DNA of 64,000 nucleotides from Bryobacterales bacterium (GTDB lineage: Bacteria > Acidobacteriota > Terriglobia > Bryobacterales > Bryobacteraceae): contig JADZCM010000014.1 in assembly GCA_020851555.1 (NCBI GenBank), forward strand, positions 59,636 to 123,635, written 5' to 3'. A program made the position numbers and the translations under genes. This document shows, piece by piece, positions 1,870 through 17,023 of this stretch. The notes under the pieces are model-generated. The model was given only the letters and a program-made list of their open reading frames with translations. It was not told the DNA's origin and ran no database searches. How positions within the stretch are numbered: the first letter of the stretch is position 1; each line of letters starts with the position of its first letter.

Positions 1870-2145
1870 ATGTTCATTGGCTACTCTCTGCCACCGTCCG
1901 ACATGCACTCCACGGTCCTGTTCCGGACCAGCGTTAAGCACGGGGGCCTGGACTGTGTGGTCGTAGTCAATCCTGACTCGGAGGCTAGGCGAAGAACGCG
2001 GGAGGTGCTACAGCGTGGAATCGGCGACAAGACCAGAGTTCTGAGTTTCGATGAGTTTGGCGAGTTCGCTAACGCCAGCCCAGCGCCCCTATCTGCGCTT
2101 TCGGCCGGTACCAAACCCAGGGCGAAAAAGACCACAACGAAGTGA
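1870..2145 (+). CDS. Hypothetical 91-aa ORF, possibly the C-terminal remnant of a larger gene
   Basis: The ORF runs from ATG at 1870 and begins MFIGYSLPPSDMHSTVLF...VVVVNPDSEARRRTREVL. The protein-like composition starts abruptly. The stop TGA (2143-2145) overlaps GTG 2142 and lies 12 nt before mcrB ATG 2157. No convincing N-terminal domain or RBS is visible. Confidence 0.25.
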   Translation: MFIGYSLPPSDMHSTVLFRTSVKHGGLDCVVVVNPDSEARRRTREVLQRGIGDKTRVLSFDEFGEFANASPAPLSALSAGTKPRAKKTTTK

Positions 2146-2156
2146 GGCAAGGCATA

Positions 2157-4541
2157 ATGGCTCCGGTTCTCTTCTTGAACGTGGGATGGATGAAGCTCTA
2201 TCAGGGCGAGTCGGCCGCACTGGCCAGCCCCGACCTTGACTTCTCAATGCTGAATTACCGGGAAGTCCATGGCAACTATTACGGCTACGGACAGATCGCT
2301 GGGAACAAGGTGAAGCTCCATAAGATCGGTGCTGACCCCAGCGCCGACCGGATGGAAGGTGTGACCGTCGTTTGGTTTTCCACGTCACCTGCTGGCAAGA
2401 AAGTCCTCGTCGGCTGGTACAGTAAAGCGACGGTGTTCCGGGACTATCAATCTCCGCCGCCAGGCTCTGGTCGGGAGATCAACGGAACCGAGGTGGGTTT
2501 CTACGCGGTTGCCAAAGTCGAGGACTGCCTGCTGCTTCCGGAGAACGAGCGGGTGTTCCCGATTCCGCGAGGCAAGGGCGGCAATGAACCAGTGCGGATC
2601 TGGTACGCCGATGAACCCGAGGACGAAGGCTACAAGAACAAGGTACTTGCCTATATCGCGTCGGGCGGCAAGGTGATACCGCCGAACCCGGCGGCGAATT
2701 CGTGGGTCTTCCAGGCGAACCCACTGTACTTCAACATCACGGACGCCGTCGAGAAGCTCACCAGCATGAGCTGGCTCGTCAGCAGGTACAAGGATCGGAT
2801 TGGCGCAGGCGATCATTTGTATCTATGGCGCTGCGGAGAGGACGCCGGGATCGTGGCGACTGGAACGGTCCTCACGGAACCCGCGCCGCTCCCCGAGAAC
2901 GAGGAGGAACTTGCCTTCGCGGTGCAGCCTGAGTATTTCAAGGGCAACGAGACCCGTGTCCGCCTCAACATCGAGCAAATTGTCAAGCCCGCGCTCCTGA
3001 AGACGGTTCTCAAGAGCGATCCCAGGCTGAAGGATCTTTCCATCCTGAACATCCGCCAGGGCACGAACTTCCCGGTTTCCGAGGATGAGGCCGCCGCGCT
3101 GGACGAGTTGATCGCCGCCCATCTGGAAGGCGGCGACGAAGTCCTGGAGGAAGGTGCCGCCAAACCCGAGGCGCGACCGACAGGCCGGGTCTGGGTGTAT
3201 GCGCCAGGGCCGAAGGCGAAGTACTGGGAGGAGTTCTACCGCGAAGGGATCATGGCAATTGGCTGGGACGACATCGGCGACTTGCGCCAGTACCCCACCC
3301 AGGAGACCGTCGCCAACAAGCTCATTGAGGTGTACCAGCCCAAGGGCTACCCCAAGAACGATTCGAGGGCCTGCTTCGATTTCGTTCACTCTATCCAACC
3401 GGGCGACCGCGTGATTGCGAAGAAGGGCTTGAGCGAGATGGTCGGCTACGGCGTCGTGGTCGGCGGATATGAACACCGACCGGATCGCGGCTACTACCAG
3501 AACGTCCGCCAGGTTCGGTGGGACGGGCGCGGGACGTGGCTTTGTGAAGGCGTATTCGCGATGAAGACGCTCACCGACTTCACGCCCTACCCAGACACCG
3601 TTGCCGGGCTGTACTCGATATTGGGTATCGAACCCGCCCAGGCGCCCCCGGAGCGGCCTCCGGCACTCCCGCGCTACACAGTCGATCAAGCGCTACAGGG
3701 CGTTGCGTTCGACCCGGCGGCGTTCGAGAACATCCTCCGCGTCTGGGAGAACAAGAAGAACCTGATCCTGCAGGGGCCTCCCGGTGTCGGCAAGACATTC
3801 CTGGCGCGGCGGTTGGCGTATGCGCTGATTGGGTACGAACTTCCGTCGCGGGTGGGGATGGTCCAGTTCCACCAGAGCTACGCCTATGAGGACTTCATTC
3901 AGGGGTACCGCCCCAAGGAGACCGGGTTCGAACGGCGCGACGGAGTTTTTGTGCGCTTCTGCAACCGGGCCAGAGCGGACCAGGACTCCCGCTACGTCTT
4001 CATCATTGACGAGATCAACCGGGGCAACCTCAGCAAGGTCTTTGGCGAGCTGCTGATGCTGATCGAGAAGGACTATCGCGGCAGCAAGCACTCCGTGACC
4101 TTGACCTACAGCGCGAAGGACGACGAGCAGTTTTACGTCCCGGACAACGTGTTCATTCTAGGCATGATGAACACGGCGGATCGCTCGTTGGCGCTGGTGG
4201 ATTACGCCTTGCGCCGCCGCTTTGCCTTCGAGCGCCTGAACCCGATGTTCGGCCAGCGTTCATTCAAGCAATTCCTCGCCAGTGGGGGAACGGACCCGGC
4301 GCTGACGACCGCCGTCTCGGATCGGCTGATCGAGTTGAACGAAGCGATTTCCGAAGACCCGAACCTCGGGCCAGGATTCTGCGTTGGCCACAGCTACTTC
4401 TGCCAACCTGGTCGGGCGCTGACCGCCACGAACTACATTGACGCGGTGAAGAACGAGATTCTGCCCTTGCTGGAGGAGTACTGGGTGGATGATCGCGACC
4501 GATTGGAGAAGTGGCGCGAAAAGTTACTGGCGAGCTTTTGA
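2157..4541 (+). CDS. mcrB: McrB-family GTPase (type IV restriction, AAA+ motor) with long multi-domain N-terminal extension
   Basis: The C-terminal roughly 290 aa carry Walker A GPPGVGKT (3774-3797), FHQSYAYEDFIQGYRP, Walker B FIIDEINRGNLSKVFGELL, and the McrB signature ILGMMNTADRSLALVDYALRRRFAF. The start could be GTG 2142 or ATG 2157. I chose ATG 2157, which has GAGG about 10 nt upstream. Confidence 0.9.
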   Translation: MAPVLFLNVGWMKLYQGESAALASPDLDFSMLNYREVHGNYYGYGQIAGNKVKLHKIGADPSADRMEGVTVVWFSTSPAGKKVLVGWYSKATVFRDYQSPPPGSGREINGTEVGFYAVAKVEDCLLLPENERVFPIPRGKGGNEPVRIWYADEPEDEGYKNKVLAYIASGGKVIPPNPAANSWVFQANPLYFNITDAVEKLTSMSWLVSRYKDRIGAGDHLYLWRCGEDAGIVATGTVLTEPAPLPENEEELAFAVQPEYFKGNETRVRLNIEQIVKPALLKTVLKSDPRLKDLSILNIRQGTNFPVSEDEAAALDELIAAHLEGGDEVLEEGAAKPEARPTGRVWVYAPGPKAKYWEEFYREGIMAIGWDDIGDLRQYPTQETVANKLIEVYQPKGYPKNDSRACFDFVHSIQPGDRVIAKKGLSEMVGYGVVVGGYEHRPDRGYYQNVRQVRWDGRGTWLCEGVFAMKTLTDFTPYPDTVAGLYSILGIEPAQAPPERPPALPRYTVDQALQGVAFDPAAFENILRVWENKKNLILQGPPGVGKTFLARRLAYALIGYELPSRVGMVQFHQSYAYEDFIQGYRPKETGFERRDGVFVRFCNRARADQDSRYVFIIDEINRGNLSKVFGELLMLIEKDYRGSKHSVTLTYSAKDDEQFYVPDNVFILGMMNTADRSLALVDYALRRRFAFERLNPMFGQRSFKQFLASGGTDPALTTAVSDRLIELNEAISEDPNLGPGFCVGHSYFCQPGRALTATNYIDAVKNEILPLLEEYWVDDRDRLEKWREKLLASF

Positions 4542-4553
4542 GGCCGACGCGAC

Positions 4554-5576
4554 ATGGCGATCCCGGTTCAGAACATCTACTACCTGCTCTGCTACGCCTG
4601 GGATGAGTTCGCGCCGAAGCAGTTGGAGAAGATCGCGACCGAGGAGTTCCCCGACGCTGTTCACTTGTTCGCCCGGCTGCTGGCAACCGGGGTGCGGTCA
4701 CTACACCAGCGTGGCTTTGAGACGGGCTACGTGACCCTGGAGCAGGTAACCAGTTCGCCGCGTGGCCGGATCATGATGGCCGAGACTCTGCTGCTGGTGG
4801 CGACTCAACCAGCGCGGGTCTGCTGCACTTTCGACGAAATGAGCGTCGACGTCCTGACCAATCAGATCCTGAAGGCGGCCCTCCGCCGCATCCTCGACAC
4901 GAAGGATTTGGACCGGAACCTGAGGGCCGAGGTGCGGTCGGCGTGGCGGCTGTTCGACCAGGTCGGCGACATCGATTTGACGCCCCGCGTGTTCTACAAG
5001 GTGCGGCTCCACCAGAACAACCGCCTGTACGCATTTCTGATCAACGTGTGCCGCTTCCTGTTCGACTCGCTCCAGCCTCTCGACCACGCGGGCGGGTACA
5101 GGTTCCAGGATGTCCTGCGGGAGCCAGAACGCCTGCAGCGAATCTACGAGAAGTTCGTGCGGAACTTCTATCGGCGGTGCCAATCGGTGTACACCGTCAA
5201 GCGCGACCGCATGGACTGGGCCGGCCAGCCGCTGGACGGCGCGGACTTCTCGCTGGTACCGCAGATGGAGACCGACGTGACGTTACGTTCGCCGTCGCGG
5301 TGCATCGTGGTGGAGTGCAAGTACACGGAGTCCATCTACCAGCAGAACTACTTCAAGGGGAAATTCCGGTCGGGCCACCTCTATCAGCTCGCGGCGTACC
5401 TCCAGAATCTGGAGACGAACTCGGAAGGCATCCTGCTCTACCCGACCGCCGGGGTGGCCGTGGATCAGAGCTACATGCTGCACGGCCACCGGGTGAGGAT
5501 GACCACGCTGGACCTGGACCGACCATGGCCGAAGATCGCGGCGTCGCTGATGGCGTTGGTGGAGAGCGCTAACTGA
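4554..5576 (+). CDS. mcrC: McrC nuclease subunit of McrBC
   Basis: 340-aa ORF starting 12 nt after mcrB. The N-terminus NIYYLLCYAW is typical of McrC. A C-terminal PD-(D/E)xK-like motif is present (METDVTL...IVVECKYTE). Confidence 0.85.
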   Translation: MAIPVQNIYYLLCYAWDEFAPKQLEKIATEEFPDAVHLFARLLATGVRSLHQRGFETGYVTLEQVTSSPRGRIMMAETLLLVATQPARVCCTFDEMSVDVLTNQILKAALRRILDTKDLDRNLRAEVRSAWRLFDQVGDIDLTPRVFYKVRLHQNNRLYAFLINVCRFLFDSLQPLDHAGGYRFQDVLREPERLQRIYEKFVRNFYRRCQSVYTVKRDRMDWAGQPLDGADFSLVPQMETDVTLRSPSRCIVVECKYTESIYQQNYFKGKFRSGHLYQLAAYLQNLETNSEGILLYPTAGVAVDQSYMLHGHRVRMTTLDLDRPWPKIAASLMALVESAN

Positions 5577-5714
5577 TTCACGCCGCCGCCTGGTCCAGAA
5601 GCAGAAGGGACCGGGTCTCACACGAGTCTCCGGCCCAATCCCACCACTCTGCCAGGCTCATCCGGCGGCACGATGTGCTCACCCTGTCCGTGCCGCTGGT
5701 CCGGGCGCTCACCT

Positions 5715-6308
5715 TCATGATTGTGCCCGGCGGTTGAAATTACTTAGTAGCGGGTAGTTGCCGGTGCTGTAGATCATCTCCCCACCCGGCGCCGCGACCA
5801 TGGGCCGCCGCAGCACGTACCGCACCCAGTTGGGGCTCAGCACCCATGCGCCATAGTTGCGGATGCTGGTGGACTGGAGCCCCGAACGCATGGTCAGCAG
5901 GTCTTCGATGGTGATGGCCCGCCTAGCGGAATCGAGCGGCTCAGTGAAGTACGGCGCTATCGGCGCCTGGGCGCCCGGGATCAGCCCGCGCTCGATGGCG
6001 ATGCCCACCAGCGCCGAGATCACGCTCTTAGACGCCGACTTGATGTTGGCGGGCGTGCCGGCGCGCGCCCCGTGGAAGTAGCGCTCCAGGACCAGCTTGC
6101 CCTGCCGGCTCACCAGCAGGCTTCGCAGCCGGGGCAATCCGGCCGCCGCTTTGCCGATCCCTTCGATGTCCGCTGCCGCCGCGGGCAGAGCCGCGAGCAG
6201 CAAGAGCCCCCACTTGAGACCCCGGGAAAACGGTCGTAATCCCCCCGCAGGCCGCACATGGCCCGGCGTACGCGCAGGAGAACCGGCCGGTCCCGCCGTC
6301 TGCTTCAT
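5715..6308 (-). pseudogene. Serine hydrolase / beta-lactamase-family protein, 3'-truncated
   Basis: It runs from ATG 6308 (MKQTAG...), with a signal-like LLLLAALPAAAA. The motif SASKSVISALVGIAIERGLI (SxxK) and YSTGNYPLLS match the N-terminal half of class-C beta-lactamase/PBP4*-like hydrolases. The ORF ends after about 197 aa with the unrelated tail NFNRRAQS*, whereas family members are usually more than 330 aa. Confidence 0.6.
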
Positions 6309-6315
6309 CCGCAAC

Positions 6316-7890
6316 CTACGGGCTGACGCACGCGCCCCCCAGCGCGGCGTTGACCACGCGCTGCACGTCGATGACGTTGCAGGCGCCGTCACGGTTGATG
6401 TCCGATGTGCAGGCCACGATTCCGAGCGCCTGATTGACCTGGAGCTGGACGTCCACCACGTTGGTGGACCCATCCCCGTTCACGTCGCAGGCGGATGGCT
6501 GCGCCGCCCCGTCTCCCCAGCGTATTTCCAGCGCCGGCCGGGCCGCGGCGTTCCAATCCCCGACATTCGAAGACCAGAAGTACTTTCCGCTGTGATAGTC
6601 CCCGTCCGTCGAATAGAAGGCGAGCCGGAGAGGCTGCCCCTGCCGATAGGCTTCGGCGGCGGCGTAGCTGACGTCCCAGTCATACGGTCCGGCCGGATGG
6701 GCGTTGTCGATAGGGTAGACCCAGGTGACCGAGATGTTCTGTTCCGCGTACGGGGCGTTGTTCCAGGTGATTGTGCTCTCCAGCCAATCCTCGGAAACCG
6801 TCAGCGCATTGATGGCCGACGGCCTGGCGTCGCCGGGGTTGTAGCCCGCGTTGCCGAAGAGGTTCAGCCTGACGCGCGCCGAGATTATGCTTTTCCCTGG
6901 CGGGACTCCGGTGAGCGGGAATGTCACGTAGTATTTCGAGAAACACATGAAGTCGGCCACATCCCACTGATTCTGGATGTTGAACTGATCGTATCCCGCG
7001 TAGTTGGCGTTGCCCCATTCGGTCCAGGCGTTCCTGGCGCCTCCGCAGTCTCCATGCCCTCCGACAGCGGCGTCAACCACCGTCGCGCCGTCGAGTCCCT
7101 GGCGTACGACCGTGGCGCCGGTCACGACGGAGGTGGGCGGCGTGTAGACGGGCCGTCCGAACCTGAGTTGCCCCCAGGTTGATGGGCGCAGGTTCTGGAA
7201 GGTCTCGGGCCAGGTCTGGTCGGGGTTCACGGCTTCATCGCGGTCGTGTACAACGACGCCCAAGCCCCAGGTGGAGCCCGGCGCCGGCGGACCGCTCAAC
7301 CCCAGACTTGAGAACGGAATCCTGAACTCGGCCTGCCACCCCACGTCCCACACGCTGTCATTGGGGTAGTTACCTCTCCACGAGGAGGCGCCCGTGAAGG
7401 ACGTTGTCCCGAGGGTCCACCCGCTTCCCGTGCCCCGGAAAGCGGCCTGAGAAGACTGGAGCTGCTTCACAAACCAGTAGCTCGTGGGTCCGGGCGCCTG
7501 CCCGGTGTTCCCGGACAGGTCCAGATAGATCGACACGGCGTCCCAGGCGGTGAGGGTCGCGGGAGTGGGGGCGGTGTCATACCACAGGAGACGGTCCGGA
7601 ATGTGGACGACAAACTGGATGTTACTGTCGAAGTACCAGACCCGGACGTCCGCATAGTTGCTGGTCATGCTCACGCTGCCGAACCAGAAGATGGCGGGGA
7701 CGAAATCGGCGGCGGGCTCCGCGGCTCCCAGATACGGAACGTTGACCCGCCGCAACGGGGCGGCTTCGAGCAAAGCAGCCAGGAGCAGCGCGGCCGCCGC
7801 CACGCAACACGCCCGCGAGCGCCAGGAGCGAAGGCGTGAGAACCCGGGCGTCGCTTGCATTCCCGCCCGCCAGTGAAAGACCTCTTTCAT
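6316..7890 (-). CDS. Secreted CBM9-like / DNRLRE-domain protein with C-terminal dockerin-type repeats
   Basis: Signal-like N-terminus (an alternative start is MQATPG at 7860). There is a CBM9/DOMON-like beta-rich region. The DNRLRE-type block is VRLNLFGNAGYNPGD...LTVSEDWLESTITWNNAPY. The C-terminus has two dockerin-like Ca-binding repeats (CDVNGDGSTNVVDVQLQVNQALG / SDINRDGACNVIDVQRVVNAALG). Confidence 0.75.
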   Translation of the reverse strand: MKEVFHWRAGMQATPGFSRLRSWRSRACCVAAAALLLAALLEAAPLRRVNVPYLGAAEPAADFVPAIFWFGSVSMTSNYADVRVWYFDSNIQFVVHIPDRLLWYDTAPTPATLTAWDAVSIYLDLSGNTGQAPGPTSYWFVKQLQSSQAAFRGTGSGWTLGTTSFTGASSWRGNYPNDSVWDVGWQAEFRIPFSSLGLSGPPAPGSTWGLGVVVHDRDEAVNPDQTWPETFQNLRPSTWGQLRFGRPVYTPPTSVVTGATVVRQGLDGATVVDAAVGGHGDCGGARNAWTEWGNANYAGYDQFNIQNQWDVADFMCFSKYYVTFPLTGVPPGKSIISARVRLNLFGNAGYNPGDARPSAINALTVSEDWLESTITWNNAPYAEQNISVTWVYPIDNAHPAGPYDWDVSYAAAEAYRQGQPLRLAFYSTDGDYHSGKYFWSSNVGDWNAAARPALEIRWGDGAAQPSACDVNGDGSTNVVDVQLQVNQALGIVACTSDINRDGACNVIDVQRVVNAALGGACVSP

Positions 7891-8046: not shown

Positions 8047-9009
8047 ATGACGCGTCTTTCTTTGCTCATTTGCGCGGCTGTGCTGGCCGTCTCGCCTTGC
8101 TTTTTGGAGGCGCAGGAGACCGGCGCGGTGGTCAGACTCGATCCGGCGCTTGACGCTCTCGTCGATGCGAACGCCCGGGTCGAGAAACTCGCCGGGGAGA
8201 TGGGTTTCCTGGAAGGCCCGCTCTGGATGCCCGGGGGCTATCTCCTCTTCAGCGACCTGGTCAGCAATGCCGTCATGAAGTACACACCCGGCGGCAAGCC
8301 CGAAGTGTACCTGGCTAAAGCAGGCTACGACCCCGACGAACCGGCGGGCGGGCGCCACATTGGCCCCAACGGGCTGGTGCTCGATGCTCAGGGCCGGCTC
8401 GTGATCTGCCAGCAGGGCAACCGCCACGTGATACGCATCGAGAAGGACGGCAGCCGGACACTGCTCGCCGAGCGTTTTGAAGGGAAGCACCTGAACAGCC
8501 CGAACGACATTGTTCGCGCCCGGGACGGTTCCCTCTACTTCACCGATCCCCCCTACGGCCTTCCCAAGCAGGACAAGGACCCGCTGGCGGAGTTGCCGTT
8601 CTGCGGAGTCTACCGGATCCGCGACTCCAGGCTGGAGTTGCTGACGAAGGAACTTGCCCGCCCCAACGGGCTTGCCTTTTCTCCCGGCGAGAAGTACCTA
8701 TACGTCACCGACGGGCGCCTCATCAAGCGGTTCGACGTGCAGAAGGACGGAGCGATCGCCAACGGGACCCTCTTCTTCGACATGTCCCAGGTCAGCCCCC
8801 GCGGCGGACCGGACGGTTTCAAAGTGGACCGGCTCGGGAACCTGTTCAGCTCCGGTCCCGGCGGAATCATCGTGATTTCGCCGCAAGGTAAACACCTGGG
8901 GACCATCCCCGTCCCCGAAAACCCCGCCAACTGCGCTTTCGGCGGCAAGGACGGCCGGACCCTGTTCATCACGGCCCGCACCAGCCTGTACTCGGTAACG
9001 CTCAAGTAG
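8047..9009 (+). CDS. SMP-30/gluconolactonase/LRE family protein (secreted)
   Basis: Start at ATG 8047 (MTRLSLLICAAVLAVSPCFLEAQ signal). EGPLWMPGGYLLFSD, NSPNDIV, LYFTDPPYG and [17 protein letters not shown] are typical six-blade propeller lactonase motifs. The last 157 nt are duplicated at 15861-16017. Confidence 0.85.
   Translation: MTRLSLLICAAVLAVSPCFLEAQETGAVVRLDPALDALVDANARVEKLAGEMGFLEGPLWMPGGYLLFSDLVSNAVMKYTPGGKPEVYLAKAGYDPDEPAGGRHIGPNGLVLDAQGRLVICQQGNRHVIRIEKDGSRTLLAERFEGKHLNSPNDIVRARDGSLYFTDPPYGLPKQDKDPLAELPFCGVYRIRDSRLELLTKELARPNGLAFSPGEKYLYVTDGRLIKRFDVQKDGAIANGTLFFDMSQVSPRGGPDGFKVDRLGNLFSSGPGGIIVISPQGKHLGTIPVPENPANCAFGGKDGRTLFITARTSLYSVTLK
8850..9006. repeat. Left copy of 157-bp direct repeat (3' end of the gluconolactonase gene)
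   Basis: By-eye alignment with 15861-16017 (offset 7011 nt) gives 155/157 identical. The two mismatches, at 8889 (t/c) and 8892 (a/g), are both synonymous third-codon positions. Identity stops at both ends. Confidence 0.9.
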
Positions 9010-9092
9010 TGATCCCCGGAATGGAGGATCTGTTCCAGCACGCGCTCGTTCGCTTTCATCTGTCTGACTGACCTTCCCCGGCCCGAGTATCC

Positions 9093-12059
9093 CTACGGCC
9101 GGTCGTACGTCGTTGCAAAAACTGTGTCCGCCAGCCACTTGCGGAACGATGGGTTGTCGCTGAACTGCTTGAAAAGCTCGGTATGGTCGGACAGCAAATC
9201 CGTAACGACCCGCTGGAGCGCCTTGTCGTGCTCGATCCGGGCGTTCTGGCGGTCCGAGTGTTTCTGGGCATTCTGGTAAGCTTTGTCGGCCGCCACCTTC
9301 GCGGGAATCTCCTCCGCGATCACCTTCCGGATCTTATCCCCGTCTTTCCAGTCGATGTTCCCGAACTGCTCATTGAACGCTTTGATGATGTTGCTCAAGC
9401 GGTCCATTTCCGCCTCTGGCTTGAACCCGCCACCAGAAGTCGGCACCGGACCGATCTCGGCGTTCTGGTCGGGCAAGGTGACCGAAATGGCCGCCTGGAC
9501 TTCCGGCCGGTAGCTGTCCATATCGATGGCTTCGAGGATGCCCTTCGACAGATCGTCCTCACGCGGAGCGGGCAGTTTCGGGATGAGGAAGTTCAGAAAG
9601 ACGGATAGCTTCTCCCATGCCGCGTTGTTGTAGGGCAGGATGGAGCCCAGAAAGCCGTAGGTCCGCACGAACGCCTTCGCCTTGCCCTTGAAGTCGACCT
9701 GGCCATCTTCATCGAGATCGGCGATGTACCCAGCGACGCAGGCGTCCAGAATCGGGTCGAGTTTGTCGCGGCTGGCGCCGGTCACGTAAAGCCCGACCAG
9801 TTGCTCCACCTGCGCCCACGAGTACACCTGGTACCCCTCCAGCGTGGCTTTCAGGTCGTGGAGCTTGTTCGGGTCGGTTTCCTCGCTCAGGATCGTGGTC
9901 CGGTAATATGGCTCGAACGCCTTCTGGATCGTCTCCGCGTCGTTAGCAAAGTCCAGAACGAAGGTGTCGTGCTTCTTCGGGTGCGCGCGGTTCAGGCGCG
10001 ACAGCGTCTGAACGGCCTTGATCCCGGATAGCGTCTTATCGACGTACATCGTGTGCAGCAACGGCTCGTCGTAGCCAGTCTGAAATTTGTCGGCCACGAT
10101 CAGAAAGCGGTATGGGTCCTCCTGGAAGCGGTCGGGAATCTGCCTGCTCGGAAACCCGTTAAGCGACGCTTCCGTGACGGGCTTACCGGCATACTGGTGT
10201 TCTCCGGAGAACGCGACGATGGAGCGGTAAGGGCTTTTCTGCTCGCGCAGGTAATCCTCGAAGGCGTGGAAATACTGGATGGCGCGCTCAATGCCGCCCG
10301 TCACCACCATGGCGCGCGCCTGGCCGCCGACCTTCCGGTACGCCATCACGCTGTCGGTGAAGTGGTCCACCATGATCTCGGCCTTCTGGCGGATCGCCTG
10401 CTCGTGAGACTCGACGTAACGGCGCAGCTTGGCGCGCGCCTTCTTCGTGTCAAACTCCGGGTCGTCGGGCACCGTCTTCGCCAGCCGGTAATAGCTCAGC
10501 ACCGGCGTATAGCTGCGCAGCACATCCAGGATGAATCCCTCCTGGATCGCTTGTTTCATCGTGTAGGAATGGAAAGGCCGGTGCTTGACCTTGCCGGCTT
10601 CCTCGAACGCCTCACCGAACGTCTCAAGCGTCTTGTTCTTCGGGGTTGCGGTGAACGCGAAGTAGCTCGCGTTCTTCAGCATCTTCCGCGATTCCATGAT
10701 GCGGTTGATGACGTCTTCGGGGGTTTCCTCCTCGTCACCACCGCTATCGGCGGTCAGGGCGATGTTCATCTTGGCCGCCGTCCGGCCGCCCTGGCTCGAA
10801 TGCGCTTCGTCTATGATGATGGCGAACTTGCTGCCGCGGTGCTCGTCGCCGATTTCATCGAGGATGAAGGGAAACTTCTGGACCGTGGTGATGACGATCT
10901 TCTTGCCGGACGCGAGGAACCGCCGCAGGTCACCGGAACTCTCGGCGTGTCCCACCGTTGCCGATACCTGCGCGAACTGCTTGATGGTGTCGCGGATCTG
11001 CTTGTCGAGGATGCGCCGATCAGTCACCACGATTACGGAATCGAAAACCGGGGCCCCATGCCGCAGCAACCCAATCAACTGGTGCGCGAGCCAGGCGATG
11101 GAGTTGCTCTTGCCGCTCCCGGCAGAGTGCTGGATCAGGTAGCGCTTGCCGACGCCGGTGACCACGGCGTCCGCCAGGAATTTCCGGACTACCTGAAGCT
11201 GGTGGTAGCGCGGGAAGATCTGGCGGCGCTTCCTGCGGCCGCGGTCATCCTTCTCTTCCGTCGTCTGTGCGTAATTTTCGATGATGTCGGTGAGGCGTGC
11301 GGGCGTCAGGATTTCCCGCCAGAGATAATCGGTCTTCACGCCGTTCGGGTTGGGCGGGTTGCCGGCGCCATCCTCGAAGCCTTTGTTGAACGGCAGGAAC
11401 CACGAGTCCTTGCCGGCCAGGCTGGTGCACATCCGGACTTCCTGATCGTCAACGGCGAAATGCACCGCGCAGCGGCCGGTCTCGAACAGGAGTTCCTTCG
11501 CGTCCCGGTCCCGTTTGTACTGCTCCACCGCGTCTTCGACGGTTTGCTTGGTCAGCCGATTCTTGAGTTCGAAGGTGGCGAACGGCAAACCATTGATGAG
11601 GACGGCCATGTCCAACGCGAGTTGGCCCTCGTCCTTGCTGTAGCGCAACTGGCGCGTGATGCTGAAGATGTTGGTCCGGAACAGGTCCTCGCTGCGCTTG
11701 TTGCCAGGCGTAGGGGTGCCGTAGAAGAGGTCGACCGAATCCGCGGGGCCGTGTTTGATCCCGCGCCGCAGGACATCGACGATGCCGCGCTTCGAGATCT
11801 CTCCCTGAAGCCGGTGCAGGAACTGGAGCCGCTTCGGGCCGTCCTCTCCGATCCCGAGGGCTTCCACGGTCTTCGGCTGGGTTGCCTTGAGGAATTCGAG
11901 TAGTACCGTTGGGTCGACGGCGTGATCGCGGTCAAAGTCCGAAGGCTCGGTCTGTCGGTAGCCAGCCTCATCGACAACGGACCCCACGATAAGTGCTTCC
12001 AGTCCCTTCTCGCTGGTGTCGCTGACCAGCTTGGGTCTAGATGGGCTAGTCGTCTGCAA
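9093..12059 (-). CDS. hsdR: Type I restriction endonuclease subunit R
   Basis: 988 aa. It has an N-terminal nuclease region, SF2 helicase motifs (IQHSAGSGKSNS, IIIDEAHSSQGG, FTATP, QTLSRLNR), and a C-terminal helical domain typical of HsdR. The start overlaps hsdS by 14 nt. Confidence 0.92.
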   Translation of the reverse strand: MQTTSPSRPKLVSDTSEKGLEALIVGSVVDEAGYRQTEPSDFDRDHAVDPTVLLEFLKATQPKTVEALGIGEDGPKRLQFLHRLQGEISKRGIVDVLRRGIKHGPADSVDLFYGTPTPGNKRSEDLFRTNIFSITRQLRYSKDEGQLALDMAVLINGLPFATFELKNRLTKQTVEDAVEQYKRDRDAKELLFETGRCAVHFAVDDQEVRMCTSLAGKDSWFLPFNKGFEDGAGNPPNPNGVKTDYLWREILTPARLTDIIENYAQTTEEKDDRGRRKRRQIFPRYHQLQVVRKFLADAVVTGVGKRYLIQHSAGSGKSNSIAWLAHQLIGLLRHGAPVFDSVIVVTDRRILDKQIRDTIKQFAQVSATVGHAESSGDLRRFLASGKKIVITTVQKFPFILDEIGDEHRGSKFAIIIDEAHSSQGGRTAAKMNIALTADSGGDEEETPEDVINRIMESRKMLKNASYFAFTATPKNKTLETFGEAFEEAGKVKHRPFHSYTMKQAIQEGFILDVLRSYTPVLSYYRLAKTVPDDPEFDTKKARAKLRRYVESHEQAIRQKAEIMVDHFTDSVMAYRKVGGQARAMVVTGGIERAIQYFHAFEDYLREQKSPYRSIVAFSGEHQYAGKPVTEASLNGFPSRQIPDRFQEDPYRFLIVADKFQTGYDEPLLHTMYVDKTLSGIKAVQTLSRLNRAHPKKHDTFVLDFANDAETIQKAFEPYYRTTILSEETDPNKLHDLKATLEGYQVYSWAQVEQLVGLYVTGASRDKLDPILDACVAGYIADLDEDGQVDFKGKAKAFVRTYGFLGSILPYNNAAWEKLSVFLNFLIPKLPAPREDDLSKGILEAIDMDSYRPEVQAAISVTLPDQNAEIGPVPTSGGGFKPEAEMDRLSNIIKAFNEQFGNIDWKDGDKIRKVIAEEIPAKVAADKAYQNAQKHSDRQNARIEHDKALQRVVTDLLSDHTELFKQFSDNPSFRKWLADTVFATTYDRP

Positions 12060-13389
12060 CGGCCGCCTCCTCTGGAACTTCCGATTCGTCTATCCCGGCG
12101 CTCAAATCTTCATCGCTTTCGTCAATTCTGTCGGCGATCAAAGGGACCTCGTCGCCAATCATAGCCTGCCGTACATCCAACTTGCCCGTAACGAGATCCG
12201 CAAGCACATCATTCCAGTACTCTCGAATTGCCTGGGCGGTACGGATGAACGAATCGTTCATTTCGGCTTCAAGATGGACAATCTCCGCGATACGGCATTG
12301 CTCGGAATACGCTGGGACGGGAATCTTTTCCTTCAGAAGCGTCCGCACGTTTAGCGGCCGGTTTCGCCCAGCCGCTCCTCGGGAATGCTGGTCTAGTAGA
12401 AACGTGCCGAACTGGGTCCGGAAGAATGCCAACAGAAAGGGACATGAAATCATGTCCCCTCGGCCCAGCAGGACGGGGTATCGATGGGAAACAACGCACC
12501 CAGAATCTTGCGGACGGGCGAGCGCAACAGCGCCCTCCCAAGCGAACTGCCCGCTAATGACCAGGTCCCCTTCCTCGATCCAATAAAAGCTGGAGTCGCC
12601 CAGGTCTGCTCCCCTCGTCGACTCCTTATGGAACATTCCGCGTCCCCTGTTGAATAAGCCTATTGGTGTGTAGATGTGGTCACTTTCGCGTTCGACCGGC
12701 CGCTCCACTATTGTCGTCACGACGCCCAGGCGCATACTCTTCGTTTGAGGAGCACGCGCCGCTTCCTCGGTCATCGCTCGGCACAACTCCCGTACAGCTA
12801 GCACTTGTTTCTTTTTCGCGCTGATGAAGCGGCGGACCAACTGATCCTGCGCGGCAATGAAACGAACAATCTGGTCCTGTTCTTCGCGGGGCGGACATGC
12901 GATGGGAATATCCAGAAACTTGTCCGGATAGAGCCTAAACCGAGAACTTCGAATCCCAGTTGACCGACATACATATTCGGATCGGTACGGCTCCGTCCGA
13001 AGCAGAACATCCACGTAGTCAGCTGAGAGGTGCTGGCCATCAACCGGCCTGTACACGCCGTATGACGGGCTGACCACACCGGTTTGCCTGGCTACGCCCA
13101 GAGCCGCCATCCAAGCCCACATCGTGTTGATGACCAGGTCACCTTGATGGCAGAGTTTGTGGCCAACGTATGACTCAGCCTCGAACATTGTGACGTTCTT
13201 CTGTCTGCGTGGAGTAACTCCCGTTAGATGCGATACCGAGAGCATCTCCTCCTCACCGGTCTGTGACCGCTCATCGATTTCTCTGAAGTACTCCTTGGCA
13301 CGGTGTTCTTCCCAATGCGCCGGTATTCGCCCGAGCCAAGGCAAGCGGGACGACTTGTAATTGGGATACGGCTTCAGACCATCGACCAT
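12046..13389 (-). CDS. hsdS: Type I restriction-modification specificity subunit S
   Basis: 447 aa. The N-terminus ...LPWLGRIPAHWE and two target-recognition-domain-like halves separated by conserved helical spacers (QDQLVRRFISAKKKQ..., AEIVHLEAEMNDSF...) fit HsdS. The ATG shares one nt with the hsdM stop (TAATG). Confidence 0.85.
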   Translation of the reverse strand: MVDGLKPYPNYKSSRLPWLGRIPAHWEEHRAKEYFREIDERSQTGEEEMLSVSHLTGVTPRRQKNVTMFEAESYVGHKLCHQGDLVINTMWAWMAALGVARQTGVVSPSYGVYRPVDGQHLSADYVDVLLRTEPYRSEYVCRSTGIRSSRFRLYPDKFLDIPIACPPREEQDQIVRFIAAQDQLVRRFISAKKKQVLAVRELCRAMTEEAARAPQTKSMRLGVVTTIVERPVERESDHIYTPIGLFNRGRGMFHKESTRGADLGDSSFYWIEEGDLVISGQFAWEGAVALARPQDSGCVVSHRYPVLLGRGDMISCPFLLAFFRTQFGTFLLDQHSRGAAGRNRPLNVRTLLKEKIPVPAYSEQCRIAEIVHLEAEMNDSFIRTAQAIREYWNDVLADLVTGKLDVRQAMIGDEVPLIADRIDESDEDLSAGIDESEVPEEAAVADD

Positions 13390-15530
13390 TACCGCGCTCC
13401 CACGATTCGGGCCAGGAGGCCTTTGGACTCATCTTCGAGCGCATAGAGTTCCGCCCTGATCTCCTCCAAACTTCTCGTCTGCTCGGGTTTGTAGAAGTAT
13501 CGGGCGAACACGATTTCATACCCGATGCGGGTTGCCCCTTCGTCGATCCAGGCGTCCGATAGATGCGGTAATACCTCGCGGCGGAAGAAGGCTTCGATGC
13601 CGCCGTCTTCGAGCAGCGGAATTTGCTCGGAGTCCTTGAAGGCAGGGTCAGGTTCGAACTCGATCAGGACGGAGCGCCCATCCTTCTCCCGGAGATAGCG
13701 GCCATAAAGGACTTCCCGTCCCGCGTCCAGGTCCTTTCGCGCTTTGGTTTCCTTCCGGATGACCGGTTCCGCGCTGTCATCCTGTCTGGTAAGTTCGGCT
13801 CGGACTAAGGCGGTCCGCTTCGCCGTCAGTTTAAGGCCGGCATCTTCGGCCGCTGCCTCGACCTGAGCGAGAAATGCGTTGTAATCGAGGTGCGGTCCCG
13901 GCCCGAGCTTGGCCCCCACAACGTCTACAACCGTCGCCAGCGCGTCGTCCTTCGCTGCTGAACAGAGGCTCCGGAATCGGCGCAGCGCCTCGGGAGACAA
14001 GTCCACACGCAATCGCAGCGGGCGGCGGACCCGAATCTTCCAATACCCGAACTCCTCGCGGGGAAAGATCTTCGACTGCTCGGACTCCTTGAACTCAACG
14101 AGCGCGGCCGCGATTCGCTGGATGTCGTCCTCGGTGAGTTCACAGTTCTTCTTCCCGAGGTTCTTGCGGAGCGGCCGGAACCAGGTGGTCGCGTCGATCA
14201 GTTGCACTCTGCCCTGGCGGATCTCCGGTTTCCGGTTGCTCAAGACCCATATGTAGGTCGCAATTCCGGTGTTGTAGAACATGTTCAGCGGCAGCGCGAT
14301 GATGGCCTCCAGCCAGTCGTTCTCGATGATCCAACGCCGGACGTTGCTTTCGCCGGAGCCGGCGCCGCCGGTGAAAAGGGAGGAGCCGTTGTGGACCTCG
14401 GCGATCCGGCTGCCGAGAGCCGTGTTCTGCTTCATCTTCGAAACCATGTTCACGAGGAAGAGCAGTTGGCCGTCATCGGAGCCCGTGACCATGCTGTACT
14501 CGGGATCGCCGGCATGATCGATGATGAAGCGCGAATCCTTGATCCCGCTTTTTCCGCCCATGCGTTCGAGGTCGATTTTCCAGCTCTTCCCGTACGGAGG
14601 ATTGGAGAGCATGAAATCGAACTGCCGCGAGCGGAATGCGTCCTGGGACAACGTCGAGCCGTGCTGGAAGTTCTCCGCCTCCTCCCCTTCGCCTTTGAGC
14701 AGGAGGTCGGCCTTGCTGATGGCGTAGGTTTCGGGCTGGCTTTCCTGTCCGTAAAGGTGGATCGACACCTCTTTCCCGTGCTCTGCGGCCAGCCGCTTCA
14801 AAGTCTCCTCAGCGACGGTCAGCATTCCACCCGTTCCGCATGCGCCGTCGTAGACCGCGTAGGTGGTGGATTCGATCTGGTCCGCGACCGGCAGGAAGAT
14901 GAGGTTCGCCATGAGCTTCACCACGTCGCGGGGCGTGAAGTGCTCGCCGGCCTCCTCGTTGTTGTCTTCGTTGAATCGCCGGATCAACTCCTCGAAGATG
15001 GTACCCATCGCGTGATTGTCGAGTCCCGGCAGGCGGACCGTTCCGTCCGGATGCATGACCGGTTCCGGACTCAGGTTGATCGAGGAGTCCGTGAATTTCT
15101 CGATAAGGCTCCCGAGAATATCGTTCTCGACGAGCGTGGGGATTTGATTGCGGAATTTAAATTTGTCGAGAATTTCAGCGACGTTCGAGGAGAAGCCTTC
15201 GAGGAATGTTTCGAAATCGGCCTTGAGCTGCTGGGCTTTGGCGCGGGAGCGCAGGTCGCGAAGCGTGAACGGCGACGCGTTGTAGAACGACTGGCCGGCG
15301 GCCGGGCGCAGAGCTCCATCCTGGTTGGCAATACCCGCCGCGTCCAGGTTGGCCTTCATGTCGAGCACGGTCTTCTTTGCAGGCCCTTCGAGGACGGCGT
15401 CGAGCCGCCGGATGACGGTCATCGGCAGGATTACGTCCCGGTACTTCCCGCGGACATAGATGTCGCGGAGAACGTCGTCGGCGATCCCCCAGATGAAGTT
15501 CGTAATCCAGTTGAGTTGACTTTGATCCAT
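13389..15530 (-). CDS. hsdM: Type I restriction-modification N6-adenine DNA methyltransferase subunit M
   Basis: HsdM_N-like start MDQSQLNWITNFIWGIADDVLRD. SAM motif I is YDGACGTGGML and catalytic motif IV is NPPYG (FDFMLSNPPYGKSW). The ORF is open up to 15617, but homologue-like sequence begins at ATG 15530. Confidence 0.9.
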   Translation of the reverse strand: MDQSQLNWITNFIWGIADDVLRDIYVRGKYRDVILPMTVIRRLDAVLEGPAKKTVLDMKANLDAAGIANQDGALRPAAGQSFYNASPFTLRDLRSRAKAQQLKADFETFLEGFSSNVAEILDKFKFRNQIPTLVENDILGSLIEKFTDSSINLSPEPVMHPDGTVRLPGLDNHAMGTIFEELIRRFNEDNNEEAGEHFTPRDVVKLMANLIFLPVADQIESTTYAVYDGACGTGGMLTVAEETLKRLAAEHGKEVSIHLYGQESQPETYAISKADLLLKGEGEEAENFQHGSTLSQDAFRSRQFDFMLSNPPYGKSWKIDLERMGGKSGIKDSRFIIDHAGDPEYSMVTGSDDGQLLFLVNMVSKMKQNTALGSRIAEVHNGSSLFTGGAGSGESNVRRWIIENDWLEAIIALPLNMFYNTGIATYIWVLSNRKPEIRQGRVQLIDATTWFRPLRKNLGKKNCELTEDDIQRIAAALVEFKESEQSKIFPREEFGYWKIRVRRPLRLRVDLSPEALRRFRSLCSAAKDDALATVVDVVGAKLGPGPHLDYNAFLAQVEAAAEDAGLKLTAKRTALVRAELTRQDDSAEPVIRKETKARKDLDAGREVLYGRYLREKDGRSVLIEFEPDPAFKDSEQIPLLEDGGIEAFFRREVLPHLSDAWIDEGATRIGYEIVFARYFYKPEQTRSLEEIRAELYALEDESKGLLARIVGAR

Positions 15531-15860
15531 TGATTGTCCGTAACCACCAGGAGGTTCTTGCAGGAACATCTCCCCTGCGCGCCGGGTGTATGGCGCCGAA
15601 CCCTCCAATTGGCTCAAGTCCTTACTTTATTGCATTGCGCCGGGGTGCGCACGTGAGGCAGGGCCGATGGGGAAAGCGACAGCACCCCACCGGGGCGGTT
15701 GCCGTGCCACATGCATATCTGATAGAAAACAAAATCGGTTCCTGCTAGCAGTACTGTAGCGATCCGCGAGAGTGCATGGGGCACATCCGGCTGGGTAAGT
15801 TACCGCGAACACGAAAGTGGCAGCAGGTCGTCGGTCTCCTGGGCTCCGGGGCTGGTACGC

Positions 15861-16017
15861 CTCCGGTCCCGGCGGAATCATCGTGATTTCGCCGCAAGGC
15901 AAGCACCTGGGGACCATCCCCGTCCCCGAAAACCCCGCCAACTGCGCTTTCGGCGGCAAGGACGGCCGGACCCTGTTCATCACGGCCCGCACCAGCCTGT
16001 ACTCGGTAACGCTCAAG
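15861..16017. repeat. Right copy of 157-bp direct repeat (orphan 3' gluconolactonase segment)
   Basis: It encodes ...[52 protein letters not shown] followed by TSGNLQ*, a different tail from the left copy, which ends LK*. No upstream propeller sequence is attached. Confidence 0.9.
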
Positions 16018-16052
16018 ACCTCCGGCAACCTGCAATAAAGCGAGCGAATGGC

Positions 16053-16099: not shown

Positions 16100-17023
16100 C
16101 TACCGGCGCAGGCCGGGCACTTCCGAGGGAATCCGGTAGAGCGTCTTGCCGGCGGTCACGTAGAGCATCCGCAGGTCCGGCCCGCCAAAGGCGCAGTTGG
16201 TGACGGTGTCCTCGGGTATGGGGATGAACCGCAGGAGCTCACCGGCGGGAGAAAACACATGCACGCCGGGGCGGGTGTCCAGAGTCTCACTCGTGTTCCG
16301 GCGGCGATTGAGGCCGGCGGCGGCATAGAGGTTGCCCTGCGAGTCGATGCACAGGCCGTCGGCGCTGCGGCCGGGGTAAAAGTTGTGGAAGACCCGCATG
16401 CCGCTCACGGAGCCTTGCGGGGACAGGTCGTAGGCGCGTATCATCCGCGCGCCGCCCTCCGCCTGGTTGGATTCGACCAGGTAGAGCGTCCGATCGTCGG
16501 GTGAGATCATGACGCCGTTGGGCCTCTCAATGGCAGGCGCTGCCAGGATCCGGGATATCCGCCCGTCCGGATCAATGCGGTACACGCCGGGCGCCTGTCC
16601 CTGGTCCGTAAAATAGATCCGCCCACGGCCGTCCAGGGTAACGTCGTTCGGCGCGCCCAGCGGCTTGCCCTCGTACCCGGCGGCGAGCACCTCCACCGCT
16701 CCGGAAGCGAGGTCCGTGCGGGTCACCCGCGGGGGCACGCCGCGGGCGGCGTCGCCCGTCTCGCAGGCGATGAGCCTGCCGCGCTCGTCGAACACCAGTC
16801 CGTTGGCGCCGTTGCTGTTCTCCCTGAACGTGGACAGGCGGCCTTTCACCGGCAGCAGGAAAATGCGGCGGCTGGTGAGGTCGGTGAAGTACACGTTCCC
16901 TGCCGCATCCGCCGCGGGTCCTTCCGTGAAGGCGATGGCGGCGGCCGGAACGGCCTCCGTCTGCCCGAGACACGCGCCGGCCGCGAAAACCAGAACCAGC
17001 GCCAAATCCGCTGCGATCCGCAT
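16100..17023 (-). CDS. SMP-30/gluconolactonase/LRE family protein (second paralogue)
   Basis: Start at ATG 17023 (MRIAADLALVLVFAAGACLG signal) with AGGTG 5 nt upstream. Motifs include FTEGPAADAAGNVYFTD, GANGLVFDERGRLIACE, PNDVTLDGRGRIYFTD and TNCAFGGPDLRMLYVTA. The longer 559-aa ORF extension overlaps the upstream gene and is rejected. Confidence 0.85.
   Translation of the reverse strand: MRIAADLALVLVFAAGACLGQTEAVPAAAIAFTEGPAADAAGNVYFTDLTSRRIFLLPVKGRLSTFRENSNGANGLVFDERGRLIACETGDAARGVPPRVTRTDLASGAVEVLAAGYEGKPLGAPNDVTLDGRGRIYFTDQGQAPGVYRIDPDGRISRILAAPAIERPNGVMISPDDRTLYLVESNQAEGGARMIRAYDLSPQGSVSGMRVFHNFYPGRSADGLCIDSQGNLYAAAGLNRRRNTSETLDTRPGVHVFSPAGELLRFIPIPEDTVTNCAFGGPDLRMLYVTAGKTLYRIPSEVPGLRR

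Follow-up and report, generated by a model that had tools for sequence, protein, structure and literature searches.

Gene content of the locus

The window analysed here is a 64-kb stretch of a 232-kb contig belonging to a metagenome-assembled genome (MAG) of Bryobacterales (Acidobacteriota), and the subject of this report is a type I restriction-modification (R-M) unit, hsdM-hsdS-hsdR, which lies in this window between two direct copies of the 3' end of a host gene, SGL1. The SGL1 product (Table 1) is identical to the protein P0241 of a Bryobacterales MAG. In NCBI the consecutive accessions MCC7174330 to MCC7174334 correspond to SGL1, HsdR, HsdS, HsdM and an orphan fragment of 51 amino acids (aa). 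The insert between the two copies occupies positions 9007-15860, that is 6,854 bp of unique sequence or 7,011 bp from repeat to repeat, and lies 21 nucleotides (nt) ahead of the native SGL1 stop codon.

The three hsd genes are intact, arranged as an operon and translationally coupled, with overlaps of 1 nt (TAATG, hsdM/hsdS) and 14 nt (hsdS/hsdR); on the basis of domains, motifs and operon order they are predicted to constitute a complete type I R-M system. The database copy of HsdR differs in one residue, probably as a result of how the TTG start is translated. Outside the hsd genes the insert comprises 86 nt at its left end (9007-9092) and the region upstream of hsdM at its right end. In the latter, which presumably holds the promoter of the operon, we found no convincing open reading frame (ORF), no Rfam match and no homologue among the 89 loci compared, and the z-score of the predicted fold was 0.5. 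A preliminary description of this DNA had listed the three genes with their overlaps and two additional ORF stubs: genes and overlaps stood up to the analysis and one of the stubs turned out to be the 5' end of a gmrSD gene, while no second stub with recognisable homology was found.

The same description had stated that no integrase, transposase or tRNA lies between the copies, and the Pfam, ARAGORN and Rfam searches bear this out. Neither the ORF list nor Pfam contains an integrase, transposase or recombinase in the insert, and there is no room in it for a recombinase; ARAGORN detected no tRNA in the 5-20 kb interval, and in the insert no Rfam match and no inverted repeats at the ends were observed. 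Among the flanking ORFs scanned with Pfam, between positions 79 and 25739, no integrase or remnant of one was present either. The locus also lacks the features of a transposon or a unit bounded by insertion sequences, as there are no terminal inverted repeats and no transposase in the insert, and the duplication measures 157 bp and is not of the short, fixed-length kind.

Table 1. Features of the SGL1-hsd locus and repeat-flanked hsd units at other loci (L numbers denote contigs and loci used for comparison)
Feature	Sequence	Position	Strand	Description	Basis
SGL1	window	8047-9009	+	secreted SMP-30/gluconolactonase/LRE-like protein, 320 aa, signal peptide	Pfam SGL, E=4.8e-43; NCBI MCC7174330.1
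Host side of similarity at right joint	window	8830-8849		patchy 11/20 similarity to 15841-15860	P about 0.01 for at least 11/20 among random window 20-mers
Left repeat copy	window	8850-9006		157 bp; T at 8889, A at 8892	ungapped comparison
gmrSD 5' stub	window	9007-9059	-	type IV restriction, DUF262 family; ATG at 9059 and 17-18 codons, MKANERVLEQILHSGDHY	homology to L005
hsdR-gmrSD intergenic spacer	window	9060-9092	-	inherited from donor-type island	alignment with L005
hsdR	window	9093-12059	-	type I restriction subunit, 988 aa, intact; HSDR_N nuclease and SF2 helicase; AGSGKS, DEAH	Pfam, PADLOC; MCC7174331.1
hsdS	window	12046-13389	-	specificity subunit, 447 aa, two target-recognition halves; GC 0.561, lowest of the unit	Pfam, PADLOC
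hsdM	window	13389-15530	-	N6-adenine methyltransferase, 713 aa (HsdM_N and N6_Mtase); DGACGTGG, NPPYG	PADLOC MTase_I, E=2e-243
Region upstream of hsdM	window	15531-15860	-	330 nt, non-coding, right end of insert	no ORF, Rfam match or significant fold
Right repeat copy	window	15861-16017		157 bp; C and G at the matching sites (states seen in outgroups)	ungapped comparison
Orphan SGL1 3' fragment	window	15861-16038	+	native tail TSGNLQ-TAA at 16018-16038	MCC7174334.1; homologue ends
SGL2	window	16100-17023	-	convergent SGL paralogue, native right flank, outside the insert	Pfam SGL, E=1.8e-41
Repeats around hsdMSR	L094 (Planctomycetota MAG)	5229-5517, 12167-12447		289 bp, 89% identical, one 7-nt and one 1-nt indel; insert is hsdMSR only	
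Repeats around hsdM-gmrSD(DUF5655)-hsdS-hsdR	L025	428-480, 9921-9973		53 bp, 98% identical	
Repeats around larger defence clusters	L105, L108			366 bp and 140 bp, respectively	
Repeat overlapping tRNA-Thr	L034			48 bp	
Repeat abutting tRNA-Leu	L146			36 bp	
Repeat among tRNA-Glu-like predictions	L140				

The direct repeat and the displaced end of SGL1

An ungapped comparison of the two repeat copies gave 155 identities over 157 positions at a constant offset of 7011 nt. The two differences (8889 T/C and 8892 A/G) fall on third-codon sites, GGT AAA against GGC AAG, both encoding Gly-Lys, and the right part of the repeat forms an identical stretch of 114 nt; identity, offset and synonymous differences had all been read correctly by eye. 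Beyond the copies the identity falls to 11/20 nt on the left and 2/20 on the right, so that the collapse noticed previously is real, while the exact counts given for it (12/20 and none) were not reproduced. A BLASTN search of the repeat against the whole window returned the two copies only, all other matches being of 14 nt or less, and a 22-mer of the repeat had 0 chance matches in 100 shuffles. A dispersed multi-copy repeat, the contrary case raised in the preliminary description, was thus not seen and we rejected it, the segment being orthologous coding sequence with two copies in the window. We also rejected, for the window, a tRNA or integrase attachment site (no tRNA by ARAGORN in 5-20 kb, no Rfam match) and, for the right copy, membership in a larger diverged pseudogene fragment, as an in-frame stop lies 29 codons upstream and no protein similarity was detected there.

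The working copy of SGL1 ends LK-TAG and its last six native codons are gone, the TAG at 9007-9009 coming from the insert; judging from the sequence, the gene looks functional despite this loss. All of the 15 closest homologues (61-88% identity) end in ...L(K/R)TSGxxx or ...TKT(S/T)xxx, for example TSGNRR, TSGSRR and TSGSRQ, and since they all extend by TSGxxx it is the orphan right copy that carries the native tail. At the DNA level the relatives L004 (84% nucleotide identity), L003 and L002 show no interruption, their left flank and repeat being followed directly by ACCTCCGG, which is the sequence found after the right copy, and the native gene therefore consists of the left flank, one repeat and the right flank. 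The assignment of the native C-terminus to the orphan copy, already proposed, agrees in this way with 15/15 homologues and with the DNA of the three relatives. The 51-aa ORF is a displaced remnant of the SGL1 end and no gene in itself; in NCBI it is entered (window 15886-16038) as "SMP-30/gluconolactonase/LRE family protein", MCC7174334.1.

Orthologues of SGL1 with 76-88% aa identity show no interruption, and their match continues for 8-13 nt beyond the joint, but the synteny downstream of them is not conserved; L002 was tried as a synteny-based empty site and failed, the gene downstream being unrelated. These relatives bear on the hypothesis that the SGL1 3' end had been duplicated ahead of the arrival of the R-M unit, which then inserted by chance between repeats that existed beforehand. 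Such cases form the third class of repeat-flanked R-M systems in the list of Furuta et al. (Furuta, Abe & Kobayashi 2010, NAR 38:2428, PMC2853133), but in the relatives the gene end is single and unbroken, the insert adjoins both copies directly and leaves no host DNA in between, and the cut in the left copy coincides with the joint. We consider this history extremely unlikely.

The closest outgroups, L004 and L003, read GGC AAG at the two variable sites, while L002 reads GGT AAG. Because L004 and L003 carry GGC AAG, the left working copy appears to hold the derived states and the orphan copy the ancestral ones. The two differences may have arisen in the working copy, by separate mutations or by a single double hit, under the filter of selection; this is mildly disfavoured because the unconstrained orphan copy gained no change. 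It is also possible that they are alleles of different strains united by recombination. The preliminary description had taken the synonymous differences as evidence that one copy came in with the donor DNA. This does not follow from our data, given the outgroup states and considering that selection-filtered mutation explains the differences about as well.

Foreign origin of the insert and its broken end

The insert is a compositionally foreign segment. Its GC content is 0.596 against 0.658 for the rest, below that of every segment of the same length elsewhere in the stretch, and its tetranucleotide distance is 0.265, compared with 0.119 +/- 0.019 (maximum 0.173) for the other segments; the GC value bears out the lower GC previously suggested from a hand-counted sample. 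As for its relatives, HsdR proteins with 70-78% aa identity occur across Planctomycetota, Chloroflexota, Desulfobacterota, Pseudomonadota and Methanosaeta/Methanosarcinales archaea. This conservation is unusually high for such a spread and would imply frequent horizontal transfer. The hsdM gene shows about 74% nucleotide identity to enterobacterial conjugative plasmids. A search for a plasmid vehicle gave nothing close, the best plasmid matches being about 74% identical over 13-19% of the insert; for a phage vehicle, no match was obtained in the phage collection and the relatives in IMG/VR reach only 63-75% aa identity.

The closest HsdR relative (95% aa identity) is encoded on a JGI contig, L005, in which hsdR is followed, in the interval 3631-7729, by gmrSD, a 146-aa ORF, a large serine recombinase and a DUF2924 protein; this order suggests that the R-M unit may ride there on a recombinase-bearing island. 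The GmrSD protein of L005 starts with MKANERVLEQILHSGDQYIIPLFQ and is called GmrSD / type IV by Pfam and PADLOC. Nucleotide homology to L005 (87%) extends from hsdR to window position 9006/9007 and ends there. As the stub is the start of gmrSD and the homology stops at this point, we infer that the insert is a broken fragment of a larger defence island. The broken end of the stub adjoins the left repeat, the two having no more than 1 nt in common, and the new TAG of SGL1 is the antisense of a gmrSD TAC codon region. What is new in this locus is that the stub beside the left repeat is, from the alignment with L005, a truncated gmrSD, which makes the donor breakpoint visible. With one end lying within the neighbouring defence gene gmrSD, the R-M unit has no fixed ends. 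On the opposite side, the 11/20 similarity between 8830-8849 and 15841-15860 may represent microhomology used at the right-hand joint.

The reading that we favour, and regard as probable, is that a foreign defence-island fragment was inserted without a recombinase and with a long duplication of the SGL1 3' end. A different history would start from an integrase-bearing element with a gene 3' end in its attachment site, which integrated at SGL1 and later lost its integrase module through a deletion between a point within the left attachment copy and codon 18 of gmrSD. The topology fits: it is a gene 3' end that has been doubled, the functional copy finishes in element DNA, the original terminus is left as an orphan, and the truncation sits on the host-gene side. 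Integrases usually sit on this side of an island, adjoining the host gene. The nearest relative, L005, does have a recombinase beyond gmrSD, and the patchy similarity outside the repeat could be what is left of attachment-site homology. However, neither the insert nor the Pfam-scanned flanking ORFs between 79 and 25739 contained an integrase or a remnant of one, and the recombinase of L005 is of the large serine type, a group not known, to our knowledge, to leave long duplications. One end of the deletion would moreover have to fall precisely within the left repeat copy, and L094 has the same bracketed architecture with hsdMSR alone. Site-specific islands have direct repeats at a tRNA or a gene 3' end, and the element completes the gene; here the repeat is a gene 3' end and a stop codon comes from the insert, but SGL1 is short of six native codons and the element DNA next to it belongs to a truncated gene. 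We judge such an origin to be improbable.

A similar topology is known for phage 21 and e14 at the E. coli icd gene, where about 160 bp of the gene 3' end is duplicated, the element completes the gene, the native end is orphaned and the differences between the copies are mostly synonymous. Phage 21 and e14, however, encode a tyrosine integrase and excise site-specifically, whereas no recombinase is found here, and they supply a full alternative gene end, whereas SGL1 loses six codons.

Assignment to a known class and recurrence at other loci

Insertion with long target duplication has been described as a class in which R and M genes lie in an insert of less than 20 kb flanked by a duplication of more than 30 bp, the insert holding R-M genes only and the repeats not being tRNA-like (PMC2853133; see also Nobusato et al. 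2000, Gene 259:99). In our case hsdR, hsdS and hsdM are inside the insert according to both Pfam and PADLOC, the insert measures 6,854 bp and the duplication 157 bp, the remaining content is limited to the 53-nt gmrSD stub and 330 nt of non-coding DNA, and the repeat is SGL coding sequence. The resemblance to this class that had been suggested from the sequence alone is therefore supported on every published point that could be tested, and we assign the locus to it on sequence features, with the exception of a clean insert-free comparator genome. The insertion mode itself is already documented, type I systems and targets at gene 3' ends included: the published cases comprise type I systems, targets overlapping gene 3' ends and repeats of 46-423 bp (PMC2853133). 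With respect to them (Nobusato et al. 2000; Furuta et al. 2010), the present case falls in a new phylum (Acidobacteriota, Bryobacterales) with a MAG as source, and its donor context is visible, one insert end being a break in gmrSD; the published cases, on the other hand, had complete insert-free genomes, which are lacking here.

To evaluate the recurrence of this arrangement, we surveyed 70 loci having a complete hsdM..hsdR unit and at least 500 bp on both sides. Two loci, L094 and L025, both from other phyla, carry the R-M genes between duplications of other host genes. The L094 repeat contains the 3' end of one host gene, a spacer and the 5' end of a DUF4177 gene; both host genes are intact, and the right copy of the DUF4177 start is frameshifted. 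In L025 the 3' end of an amino-acid kinase (argB-like) gene is duplicated. At both loci no tRNA was present, and ORF and Pfam scans revealed no integrase. The idea that hsdMSR homologues would be found between other host-gene duplications thus holds for L094 and L025, while at L034 and L146 the repeats touch tRNA genes; the repeats of three further loci (L105, L108 and L140) are described in Table 1. Since the same R-M family shows similar bracketed units elsewhere, these results suggest that the recombinase-free entry route is general and extends beyond naturally transformable bacteria of the Helicobacter kind.

Integrated, empty-site and circle-type junctions in other assemblies

The structure of the locus can be compared with public contigs from other assemblies. 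An independent JGI contig of 7.7 kb, L001, is 100% identical to window 16200-10481 over 5,720 nt and reproduces the right junction. The 51-aa orphan ORF with its native tail occurs on 5 contigs in all, and the ENA contig L088 shows the left copy with T,A followed by the TAG at its end. Other contigs present different pairings of the flanks. In three ENA contigs, L090, L091 and L092 (ERZ795025, ERZ27249277, ERZ27257425), the DNA upstream of hsdM and a repeat with C,G are joined to position 9007 onwards and continue past the junction into the gmrSD stub and the 3' end of hsdR, with 0-1 mismatch over 0.8-1.2 kb. This junction is the one expected of an excised circle or of a tandem array, and the contig carrying P0244 is probably a fourth with the same junction. 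The NCBI contig L089 (589 bp) instead joins the left flank, a repeat with T,A and the native tail, with 437/437 identities, giving the precise empty-site sequence. A search for the empty site had been proposed in the preliminary description, and its outcome is mixed: the match in L089 is perfect, but it comes from a short contig with an unrelated 5' end, and the SGL1 orthologues that are uninterrupted do not share synteny.

These contigs must be considered with caution, as they are short and the repeat copies share the identical stretch of 114 nt. Positions 1-760 of L088, 1-152 of L089 and 1-80 of L090 fail to match the window (identity in L090 is 71%, as would be the case for a different allele of hsdM), and because of these ends we conclude that the assemblies contain chimeric joins. 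Circle-type ORFs and ORFs with the correct right junction are found on 4 and 5 contigs, respectively, a ratio that fits path-switching in a low-coverage assembly graph as well as it fits a two-copy tandem array. That the empty-site and circle/tandem contigs are real recombination products, path-switching during assembly being the alternative, is possible, although we lean towards doubting it.

The same evidence bears on whether the integrated form is itself an assembly artefact, the R-M unit being a separate molecule, or lying elsewhere in the genome, and having been mis-threaded into the SGL1 locus through about 157 bp of shared sequence. The source is a MAG, alternative flank pairings do exist on contigs (the empty-site type in L089, the circle type in L090-L092) and the 114-nt stretch exceeds many assembly k-mers. 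Yet the C,G copy is followed by the native tail and SGL2 both in the 232-kb MAG contig and in the 7.7-kb contig from JGI, an independent assembly, the orphan ORF with native tail recurs on 5 contigs, L088 links the T,A copy to the TAG, and a 7-kb molecule without a replication gene would be an implausible replicon. An artefact of this kind is very unlikely.

The allelic states of the junction contigs bear on another hypothesis, in which the unit already bore a 157-bp SGL1 end captured in a conspecific and entered by homologous recombination in that copy, either through Campbell-type integration of a 7,011-bp circle or through import from a donor strain, one crossover falling within the repeat. 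In that case the present integration would be younger than the illegitimate joints. A tract of 157 bp may be long enough for RecA-type recombination, and the copies differ at two synonymous sites only, as for alleles that both evolved as working genes. In addition, the C,G allele is found in 3/3 contigs of the circle/tandem type and T,A in the contig of the empty-site type, as a single crossover in the 114-nt part would produce. This allele pattern, however, is forced by geometry in short contigs, and chimeric contigs would show it as well. A circle that lacks a replication gene cannot be maintained, and the first illegitimate event of the favoured reading is still needed, so that this hypothesis adds a step and replaces none. 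We regard it as a tentative alternative, less likely than the favoured reading.

Proposed mechanism and significance

In the recombinase-free insertion that we favour, an incoming fragment of a defence island, broken inside gmrSD, would have been joined to the chromosome without a recombinase. The joining would be illegitimate, of an end-joining type, the gmrSD joint having no more than 1 nt of homology and the joint upstream of hsdM a patchy microhomology. The two ends of the insert might have been joined 157 nt apart, at staggered breaks or on two sister copies, and this offset would account both for the duplication of the target and for a host gene that is nearly complete. The repeats would then be substrates for homologous recombination by the host, which would delete the unit precisely and restore the native tail, or release a 7,011-bp circle; it could also amplify the unit in tandem or move it between conspecific strains.

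Two documented processes come close to the proposed one. Known cases of homology-facilitated illegitimate recombination usually delete recipient DNA and do not duplicate it. In this process foreign DNA is integrated with no recombinase involved, one joint being homologous and the other illegitimate (PMC3240628). Transformation-induced merodiploidy does produce duplications, through the pairing of a single donor molecule with both sister chromatids (Johnston et al. 2013, PMC3784515), but these measure 100-900 kb and need a pre-existing repeat, whereas the duplication here is of 157 bp. Concerning amplification, an R-M gene complex placed between long direct repeats multiplies, according to the account of Sadykov et al. 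(2003, Mol Microbiol 48:417) cited in PMC2853133. The likeness lies in the R-M genes between long direct repeats and, here, in four short contigs (the fourth probable) with a tandem/circle junction; the difference, as far as the cited account goes, is that theirs was a constructed BamHI type II system in Bacillus, while amplification here is only suggested by contigs that may be chimeric.

It should be noted that several points weigh against the insertion as we propose it. The source being a MAG, its long-range structure depends on the assembly of short reads. No insert-free genome with identical flanks was found, the only such sequence being the 589-bp contig L089 with its unrelated 5' end, and the exact native SGL1 protein of 326 aa is absent from the protein collection. 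The donor side of the right joint (15860|15861) was not found, so that microhomology is judged there from one side. If the duplication arose in place, both substitutions fell in the functional copy and none in the orphan, which is mildly unexpected (roughly 0.04-0.2, weighing synonymous sites against all sites). Finally, the mechanism behind the 157-bp duplication is established neither here nor in the literature.

A further step would be to consider the 7,011-bp unit as an active mobile element lacking a recombinase, which uses its own copy of the host-gene end as a portable homology site. We put this forward as speculative and rather doubtful. If it were true, the unit would cycle in nature among integrated, circle/tandem-amplified and empty-site states, and L089 together with L090-L092, and probably the contig carrying P0244, would be the first natural sightings of the release and amplification steps of a virus-like R-M life cycle. 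The release step of R-M systems is without experimental support, according to Furuta et al. (PMC2853133). More generally, the movement of defence systems lacking their own recombinases is poorly understood, and insertions with long target duplication have no accepted mechanism. The present case is informative for its sharp joints, one of which is a break in gmrSD, for a host gene left almost intact and for the occurrence of the element in public metagenomes from several samples; because of these four features the predicted products, namely empty site, circle and tandem array, can be counted in existing reads.

Neighbouring genes

The right flank carries the paralogue SGL2, convergent to SGL1. 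The two genes share an inverted similarity of 33 nt (79%), between window 8657-8689 and 16243-16275, whose SGL1 arm begins at the stretch coding for RPNGLAFSP; the unrelated part of L089 meets SGL1 exactly at 8658, within this arm. On the left side, about 2.5 kb upstream of SGL1, lies a region with a GC content of about 0.60. It comprises a DDE transposase fragment at 771-1391, which is the mobility gene nearest to the insert, and a type IV restriction pair of the McrBC type in 2142-5576, with a gene for an EVE and AAA_5 McrB-like protein at 2142-4541 and McrC at 4554-5576. The neighbourhood of SGL1 looks like a defence hotspot.

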